This document shows positions 1,473 through 1,679 of a DNA stretch of 5,095 nt, in pieces. How positions within the stretch are numbered: the stretch's first letter is position 1; the number at the start of each line of letters is the position of its first letter. The notes under the pieces were generated by a model. The model saw only the letters and a list, made by a program, of their open reading frames with translations, searched no databases and was not told the origin of the DNA. Position numbers and translations under genes: made by a program. Location: the IMG/VR virus record IMGVR_UViG_2698536369_000016, one strand, 5' to 3'. This stretch comes from a virus. Lineage: Duplodnaviria; Heunggongvirae; Uroviricota; Caudoviricetes.

Positions 1473-1509
1473 CGTAACCTGTCGGATCGCCGGAAAGGAC
1501 CCACGAAAA

Positions 1510-1524
1510 TGATAATAATTATCA
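1510..1524. promoter_or_regulatory. Fur-box-like 7-1-7 palindrome TGATAATaATTATCA
   Basis: The sequence matches the 7-1-7 inverted-repeat description of the Fur operator (TGATAATnATTATCA). It lies about 40 bp from cosN and about 155 bp upstream of the plus-strand ORF at 1680. Confidence 0.3.
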
Positions 1525-1679
1525 TCTACATGAGGTTTATCACGACATGTGTGTACGCCATCAAACCACGAGAAATAATCAATTATTACGCAGGTATCGT
1601 ATTAATTGATCTGCATCAAATTAGCGTAAAAGCAACTTCAGATAATACAAATCAGCAACACTGAATACGGGGCAACATT

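Follow-up and report, generated by a model that had tools for sequence, protein, structure and literature searches.

The 5,095-nt stretch of DNA analysed here (henceforth referred to as 'the window') represents the cos region of a lambdoid prophage, the features of which are listed in Table 1. The Nu1-family gene on the minus strand is annotated as a terminase small subunit in strain RM8352, and the cosB-type repeats that lie between its start and cosN (1325-1423) are of the phage 21 type. In the phi80 record these 12 bases of cosN are marked as a single-stranded sticky end, and the 7-bp cosQ is highly conserved (PMC4669245). The gene for the PerC-family regulator is situated between Rz and cos and is convergent with the DUF3950 gene. 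Regulators of this Pch type control the LEE island in enterohaemorrhagic E. coli. Further to the right, the minus strand encodes Rz/Rz1 spanins and lysozyme, and a 104-aa open reading frame on the plus strand (4219-4533), for which we found no Pfam match, is placed between the lysozyme and holin genes, opposite to the lysis cassette; the stretch at this reading frame differs in strain RM8352. Both ends of the window (1-115 and 4981-5095) are perfect 115-bp inverted copies of the end of an IS3-family element (the start of transposase OrfA), which interrupt the gene for the large terminase subunit at 116 and that for holin near 4980. Since these inverted copies bracket the whole cos segment, they suggest a composite structure or an inversion brought about by the IS copies; no uninterrupted single match to the left-end junction was detected among the complete genomes searched.

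Table 1. Features in and around the cos region of the window.
Feature	Position	Strand	Basis or remark
Large terminase subunit gene, truncated	113-853	-	
Small terminase subunit gene, Nu1 family	768-1277	-	Pfam Phage_Nu1, E = 1e-18
cosB-type repeats CATGTCCGGTT(T/C)	1325-1336, 1355-1366; inverted copy 1412-1423	-	Repeat search
cosN cohesive-end 12-mer AGGTCGCCGCCC	1461-1472		Reverse complement of GGGCGGCGACCT (lambda cohesive end)
cosQ, packaging-termination signal (AGGACCC; minus strand GGGTCCT)	1496-1502	-	7-mer and position as in phage 21 record
Weaker overlapping Fur unit, centre 1511	1502-1520		9.9 bits; 6 bp towards cosQ
19-bp Fur site AATGATAATAATTATCATC	1508-1526		25.1 bits; core is the 7-1-7 palindrome 1510-1524
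Consensus FNR site TTGATCTGCATCAA, centre 1612.5	1606-1619		
DUF3950 (YlcI/YnfO family) gene	1680-1904	+	Pfam DUF3950, E = 1.3e-17; RefSeq YlcI/YnfO family protein
Second Fur-grade match AATGAAAAATATTCTCAAT	1830-1848		20.8 bits; inside the 3' part of the DUF3950 reading frame
PerC-family regulator gene, Pch type, 104 aa	1986-2300	-	Pfam, E = 3.8e-44

The original prediction placed a perfect 7-1-7 inverted repeat resembling a Fur operator between cosN and the plus-strand gene now assigned to the DUF3950 family, and its sequence, coordinates and location all proved correct. The 15-mer TGATAATAATTATCA is centred on 1517, at a distance of 7 nt from cosQ and 38 nt from cosN. As about 0.3 perfect 7-1-7 palindromes of any sequence are expected in the window, where one is seen, the symmetry alone is unremarkable and it is the sequence itself that counts. 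By composition, a perfect copy of TGATAATAATTATCA is expected 4e-5 times in 5095 bases; when up to two mismatches are allowed the expectation is 0.04 (at least one match in 9 of 200 shuffles), and a search of all 5095 bases at this stringency found no second match. To score the site we built a Fur matrix from 11 experimentally supported K-12 sites at their published centre coordinates and left out nohA and nohB. The published model likewise spans 19 bp (Chen et al. 2007, PMC2189734), and since nohA is within its refined 24-site set the published score is partly self-trained, which our own matrix avoids. The window 19-mer scored 25.1 bits, within the range of 19.3-27.7 bits obtained for the training sites by leave-one-out, and so passes the weight-matrix check against confirmed sites; in 1.1 Mb of phage DNA used as background only five positions reached at least 20 bits (about 1 per Mb), four of which are one recurring second site. 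The caveat that such an AT-rich palindrome might have arisen by chance is ruled out. The weaker overlapping unit touches the final base of cosQ, and units in Fur clusters are typically 6 bp apart and on different helix faces. The second Fur-grade match is 322 bp away from the main box; four related loci have it too, about +330 nt from cosQ, and five others carry a 15.5-bit variant of it. Two other identities of the palindrome were considered and rejected: its TGAT and ATCA are 7 nt apart, as opposed to the 4 nt of the FNR motif TTGAT-N4-ATCAA, and a comparison by eye of the box and its right flank with the IHF consensus WATCAANNNNTTR gave no match.

Counterparts of this site are known in the K-12 prophages. 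The 'nohB' site of DLP12 (25.3 bits in the published M9 model with a cut-off of 10 bits; coordinate 579824) is the third strongest K-12 Fur cluster, and the 'nohA' site of Qin (22.3 bits; coordinate 1634624, position -233) is also among the strongest (PMC2189734). An oligonucleotide carrying the Qin nohA site was shifted by 150 nM Fur in gel shift assays, and the Qin nohA fragment had earlier been cloned via in vivo Fur selection by Vassinova & Kozyrev (2000); the DLP12 site is given in Table 4 of Chen et al. without gel-shift or footprint data (PMC2189734). The window 19-mer is identical to that of DLP12 'nohB/nohD' and shares 17 of 19 bases with that of Qin 'nohA', the palindrome of which, again beside cosQ, is TGATAATGATTATCA. 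At the K-12 loci that we checked, the distance from the Qin and DLP12 palindrome centres to the downstream nohA and nohD is exactly 233 bp, which matches the published '-233', and the positions are offset from the old published coordinates by 1976 and 777, respectively. These offsets presumably reflect IS insertions added when the K-12 genome was revised.

Occupancy of equivalent boxes has been recorded in two other strains, CFT073 and O157:H7 Sakai. In CFT073, ChIP-exo peak P53 (1424699-1424711), present in iron-replete cells only (Gao et al. 2023, PMC10164565), sits on a cos-adjacent box at 1424692-1424710 that scores 22.6 bits and is 4 bp from cosQ. In Sakai, peak P90 was likewise seen only under iron-replete conditions (PMC10164565), and after calibration of the coordinate offset on the cirA site it maps 13 bp from the centre of a 27.6-bit box in prophage Sp15. 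At both P53 (the 'nohD' unit) and P90 the box is separated from AGGACCC by 4 nt and a small terminase gene follows about 230-250 bp downstream, an arrangement like that in the window; they differ from it in the sequence of the box (the 21-type AACGAGAATAATTATCACT and AATGATAATGGTTATCATT) and in that these prophages, unlike the window, have no DUF3950 gene beside it. The MG1655 ChIP-exo list contains no peak at either K-12 copy (PMC10164565). The predicted identity as a Fur operator is thus borne out by the matrix score, by the likeness to DLP12 and Qin and by ChIP-exo at equivalent boxes, and Fur very probably binds 1508-1526 in the window, as predicted from the homologues. This reading is supported, but it is already in the literature for the K-12 prophages and in the ChIP-exo tables, and as a Fur box alone the site adds nothing new.

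The relationship of the box to cos extends well beyond the window. In lambda a box occupies the same place relative to cos (bp 48452-48466, 6 bp from cosQ), and phi80, N15 and 21 carry a box at the same place, beyond which their DNA is unrelated. We surveyed viral contigs with a pattern that fixes only the bases on the cosN side and of cosQ, and obtained 118 loci in 64 distinct contexts. In 52 of the 64 contexts (101 of the 118 loci) a site scoring 19 bits or more had its centre 12-16 nt beyond cosQ, with the box 5-8 nt from cosQ; in two contexts the copy was degraded by a 2-bp deletion and in ten there was no box. The box-bearing cos contexts are joined to many unrelated right flanks, and alignment of 18 flank classes revealed conservation that runs from cosN through cosQ and a variable A-rich spacer into the box and ends a few bases past it. 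The reverse survey, in which contigs were chosen by the box motif, added nine new contigs, and the box was again beside GGACCC. Overall, as judged from these alignments, a conserved block to the right of the lambdoid cos is made up of cosN, cosQ, an A-rich spacer of 5-8 nt and a Fur box. In Sakai Sp15 AGGACCC is followed by the 27.6-bit box, with a cosN of a type other than that of lambda beside it and the small terminase gene 246 bp downstream. As this small terminase subunit gene is a different one, the cosQ-like motif and the box (2919044-2919073) seem to move together as a unit. Two viral contigs (L194 and L208) carry a cos-like GCCCCGTAAC...CGGATTA, then AGAAAGAAAT in place of GGAAAGGACCC and then a perfect AATGATAATTATTATCA box, which looks like a more diverged cos that has retained its Fur box.

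When one genome per species was scanned with the cosN-to-cosQ pattern, credible matches were confined to Escherichia/Shigella; the matches in unrelated taxa resemble lambda spike-in DNA (one contig is 48,542 bp long and of low coverage), and the scan gave no deep taxonomic signal. Sakai Sp4, the pchA prophage, was considered as a direct analogue of the window and rejected, since its cos is rearranged by IS629 and ISEc8 and no box is found beside pchA. In the 21-type prophages of phage 21 and CFT073, a gene for a TonB-family C-terminal-domain protein, an iron-uptake-related accessory gene product, is found just upstream of the box (about 0.7-1.0 kb), and the same region of CFT073 also holds iss and an ompC-like porin gene. 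On a further 21-type contig (L009) a 20.4-bit Fur match at +4604 from cosQ comes right after a perfect TTGACA (TTGACAATGAGAACTGTTTTCATT), an arrangement that looks like a Fur-controlled promoter.

Published fur deletion data give an uneven picture of what such boxes do. In MG1655 nohA/nohD, ybcW and ydfO were unchanged, and in W3110 ynfO and ylcI changed by log2 -5.1 and -3.9, respectively, from counts below 8 to zero (PMC10164565). In CFT073 the genes for the large terminase subunit, portal and protease rose by 1.3-2.1 log2 and two small open reading frames upstream of the box rose by 2.3-2.9 log2, and in Sakai ECs2962 rose by 1.57 log2 (PMC10164565). The increases in the terminase operon agree in direction with repression by Fur, but they are confounded: since the rise extends to genes on either side of the box, the increase in CFT073 could be general late transcription or prophage induction, and that in Sakai could be read-through from the Fur-regulated stx1 promoter. 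A promoter scan and our own hexamer matrix, applied to both strands, found no sigma-70 promoter overlapping the box that exceeded shuffled controls. The best scores at the box were 5-6 bits, compared with a mean maximum of 7.3 for the shuffles, and so no promoter can be assigned from sequence. A FNR site is reported at -85.5 from a nohA start (Grainger et al., PMC1802558), and this spacing would place a nohA start, directed towards cos, 4 bp away from the box centre. A nohA promoter-lacZ fusion showed low activity.

Given these results, we considered whether Fur binds here without regulatory consequence, the box being carried along neutrally with the cos module or serving as a decoy that sequesters Fur. 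The unaffected flanking genes in the K-12 fur deletion and the missing promoter over the box fit this reading, as does the report of Beauchene et al. that many Fur ChIP sites are transcriptionally silent. The sequence of the box itself argues otherwise. Across 25 distinct natural 19-mers (consensus AATGATAATGATTATCATT), the Fur scores sum to 570.6 bits, far above the 486.5 +/- 13 bits reached when the same numbers of substitutions are placed at random (0 of 5000 simulations reach 570.6), and variability per position falls with rising Fur information content (rho = -0.63, p = 0.004); the variants in this test are related by descent and sites below 10 bits were left out. The retention of Fur-grade scores, together with variation that spares the informative positions, argues for selection on binding, and the box also persists across many mosaic junctions and beside a different terminase module. 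From this pattern of substitutions the box appears to be kept by selection in lambda-like cos flanks, and a site without consequence is an improbable explanation.

If the box is kept for regulation, the DUF3950 gene is the target that the original prediction named, in that the site was proposed to make this gene iron-responsive; in a variant of this proposal Fur would act together with FNR. The arrangement in lambda-type loci is in its favour, since the box is upstream of the DUF3950 gene in all 78 of the 78 loci where that gene is within 1.5 kb of cosQ (76 boxes of at least 19 bits and two 12-bit copies degraded by the 2-bp deletion). The second Fur-grade match inside the gene and the grouping by Myers et al. 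of the nohA region with feoABC, among regions bound by FNR and repressed by Fur, point the same way. Yet the gene is absent from 26 of 104 strong-box loci and from phi80, N15 and 21, and ynfO and ylcI, its K-12 homologues, were not derepressed in the fur deletion, where the decreases given above come from counts below 8. Furthermore, a different promoter suggests itself. The consensus FNR site is also present in lambda, Qin and DLP12, and both ChIP-chip and EMSA have shown FNR binding at the homologous K-12 sites (Grainger et al., PMC1802558). The DUF3950 gene was unannotated at the time of that study, which tested the nohA direction only (PMC1802558). In the window a start is predicted at about 1654, 41.5 bp downstream of the FNR centre, with a -10 element GATAAT at 1641-1646. 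Judging by this spacing, transcription of the DUF3950 gene is more likely governed by a class II FNR promoter at 1606-1619 than by the Fur box, the centre of which is about 137 bp upstream of the predicted FNR-dependent start and thus too far for simple occlusion by Fur; nor does any above-chance promoter overlap the box. The suggested iron control of the gene is therefore not supported: the Fur box is probably not its main switch, and it is decidedly unlikely to serve as an operator for it.

A further observation concerns the FNR data themselves. The FNR ChIP-seq summit that Myers et al. give for nohA is 1634625 (Qin, old coordinate; approximately 1517 in the window), which coincides with the Fur-site centre at 1634624, and the FNR motif is 89 bp away from it. 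Of the ten operons that they class as 'FNR-bound but Fur-repressed', binding by Fur was already established for nine. The FNR antibody could thus pick up Fur-occupied DNA.

Instead of binding a protein, the inverted repeat could, alternatively, form a hairpin in late RNA with a role in processing, stability or termination. Minus-strand RNA from 1495-1540 does fold to -13.8 kcal/mol (z = -4.0), but the stem is all A-U with a loop of 1-3 nt and the U-tract is absent, and the outer arms that give the low folding energy are not conserved in lambda. Substitutions are asymmetric as well: position -7 differs in 11 variants and position +7 in three, so that pairing is not maintained. A terminator or other structured RNA was rejected on these grounds (no call from the terminator scan, a stem of A-U pairs only and no compensatory pairing), and the asymmetric changes in the arms also argue against a role as a cruciform. 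We regard the hairpin as extremely improbable.

Since the box always lies 5-8 nt from cosQ and ends the conserved cos block, we considered whether it is a functional cos subsite at which bound Fur or terminase aids the recognition of the terminal cos, for example by slowing the motor, or else shields or arranges the right end of the DNA. The packaging motor meets the box immediately before cosQ, the weaker Fur unit touches cosQ, the phi80 record draws a 'cosQ aka R4 region' across the box, and standard cos constructs (lambda 48446-182) include it. However, not every phage with this cos and terminase carries the box. In the isolated phages 4A7 and IdasGreatGrand, cosN and cosQ are identical and the place of the box is taken by unrelated sequence. 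The ten of 64 contexts without a box likewise share cosN and cosQ, and some of them encode a lambda-type Nu1; a probable satellite is also without the box. Viable phages with the same cosQ, cosN and Nu1 thus do without the box, which indicates that it is unnecessary for packaging. The alignment ends at cosQ in 7 of the 60 phage records listed, and the spacing to cosN and cosQ is not fixed, as would be expected of a cos subsite, but varies by 4 nt (centre 12-16 nt past cosQ; spacer 5-8 nt). Moreover, the Sp15 box is beside a cosN that is not lambda-type, and the papers of the Feiss laboratory give cosQ a length of 7 bp and mention no other subsite past it. A role in packaging is, on this evidence, very unlikely.

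Our best explanation is that the box is a genuine Fur operator that belongs to the cos-flank block as an accessory element and has an output directed at terminase, and we consider this account as a whole reasonably probable. Iron-loaded Fur dimers would bind the 19-bp unit at 1508-1526, a second dimer may take the weaker unit 6 bp towards cosQ, and binding would be lost when iron is scarce; these steps have been shown for homologues and are proposed by extension for the window copy. Bound Fur would then dampen, in an iron-dependent manner, transcription that starts at or passes the box and enters cos, Nu1 and gpA without need of the late antiterminator Q. We favour damping of terminase-operon transcription because cos and the minus-strand terminase operon are the only neighbour common to all carriers, and we put this output forward tentatively, as something that may well be otherwise. 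A broader formulation, in which the box is an accessory cos subsite that reads host iron at the junction between the lysis/accessory region and terminase, and either gates Q-independent transcription of terminase and head genes or lets Fur modulate the motor at cosQ, seems to us unlikely, if conceivable.

What is gained from the comparison across phages is the recognition that one of the best E. coli Fur sites is really part of the lambda cos flank, in lambda as in phi80, N15 and 21. A literature search found no paper that names both Fur and cosQ and none that links ynfO and Fur, and queries combining ynfO or ylcI with iron or dipyridyl gave nothing relevant. The linkage of a Fur site to cosQ in lambda-like phages thus appears to be undiscussed, and the benefit of the box to the phage appears not to have been asked about. 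If the box were a cos subsite, a site for a host factor would have gone unrecognised in lambda itself, 6 bp from cosQ. Should the box couple packaging or the expression of terminase to iron, phage morphogenesis would be linked to a nutritional signal of the host, and this link could matter in Shiga-toxin-producing E. coli, where this cos is beside virulence regulators (Pch) and iron already controls stx1.

The closest known systems are the K-12 nohA and nohB sites. As in these, the box in the window is 233-240 bp upstream of a small terminase homologue (240 bp from the Nu1 start to the box centre) and 6-7 nt from cosQ. In contrast to them, the spacer between the window copy and cosQ is longer by one base, and the window is a fragment of a prophage of the Shiga-toxin-producing E. 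coli type, with cosB repeats of the phage 21 type, a PerC/Pch gene and flanking IS3-family elements. A second point of comparison, as an analogy for the packaging role only, is the IHF site I1 in lambda cosB, which is on the cosB side of cos and has a demonstrated role in packaging initiation. Like I1, the Fur box is a site for a host DNA-binding protein inside the conserved cos region; a packaging role of the box is conjectural, in contrast to that of I1, and phages that lack the box are viable. The chromosomal Fur operators of sufA, gpmA and ryhB have the same 19-bp pattern as the window site, and that of sufA contains the exact lambda 15-mer TGATAATGATTATCA. Whereas these operators overlap mapped promoters and are strongly derepressed in fur mutants, the window box has no above-chance promoter, and the output of cos-flank boxes is weak or undetected. 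The stx1 promoter of Stx1 phages also carries a Fur box, and Sakai peak P91 is assigned to ECs2973/ECs2974, the stx1 genes. Both this box and the cos-flank box are host Fur operators carried on lambdoid prophages; the former controls a defined accessory-gene promoter, whereas the latter is tied to the junction between the packaging site and terminase and not to an accessory gene.
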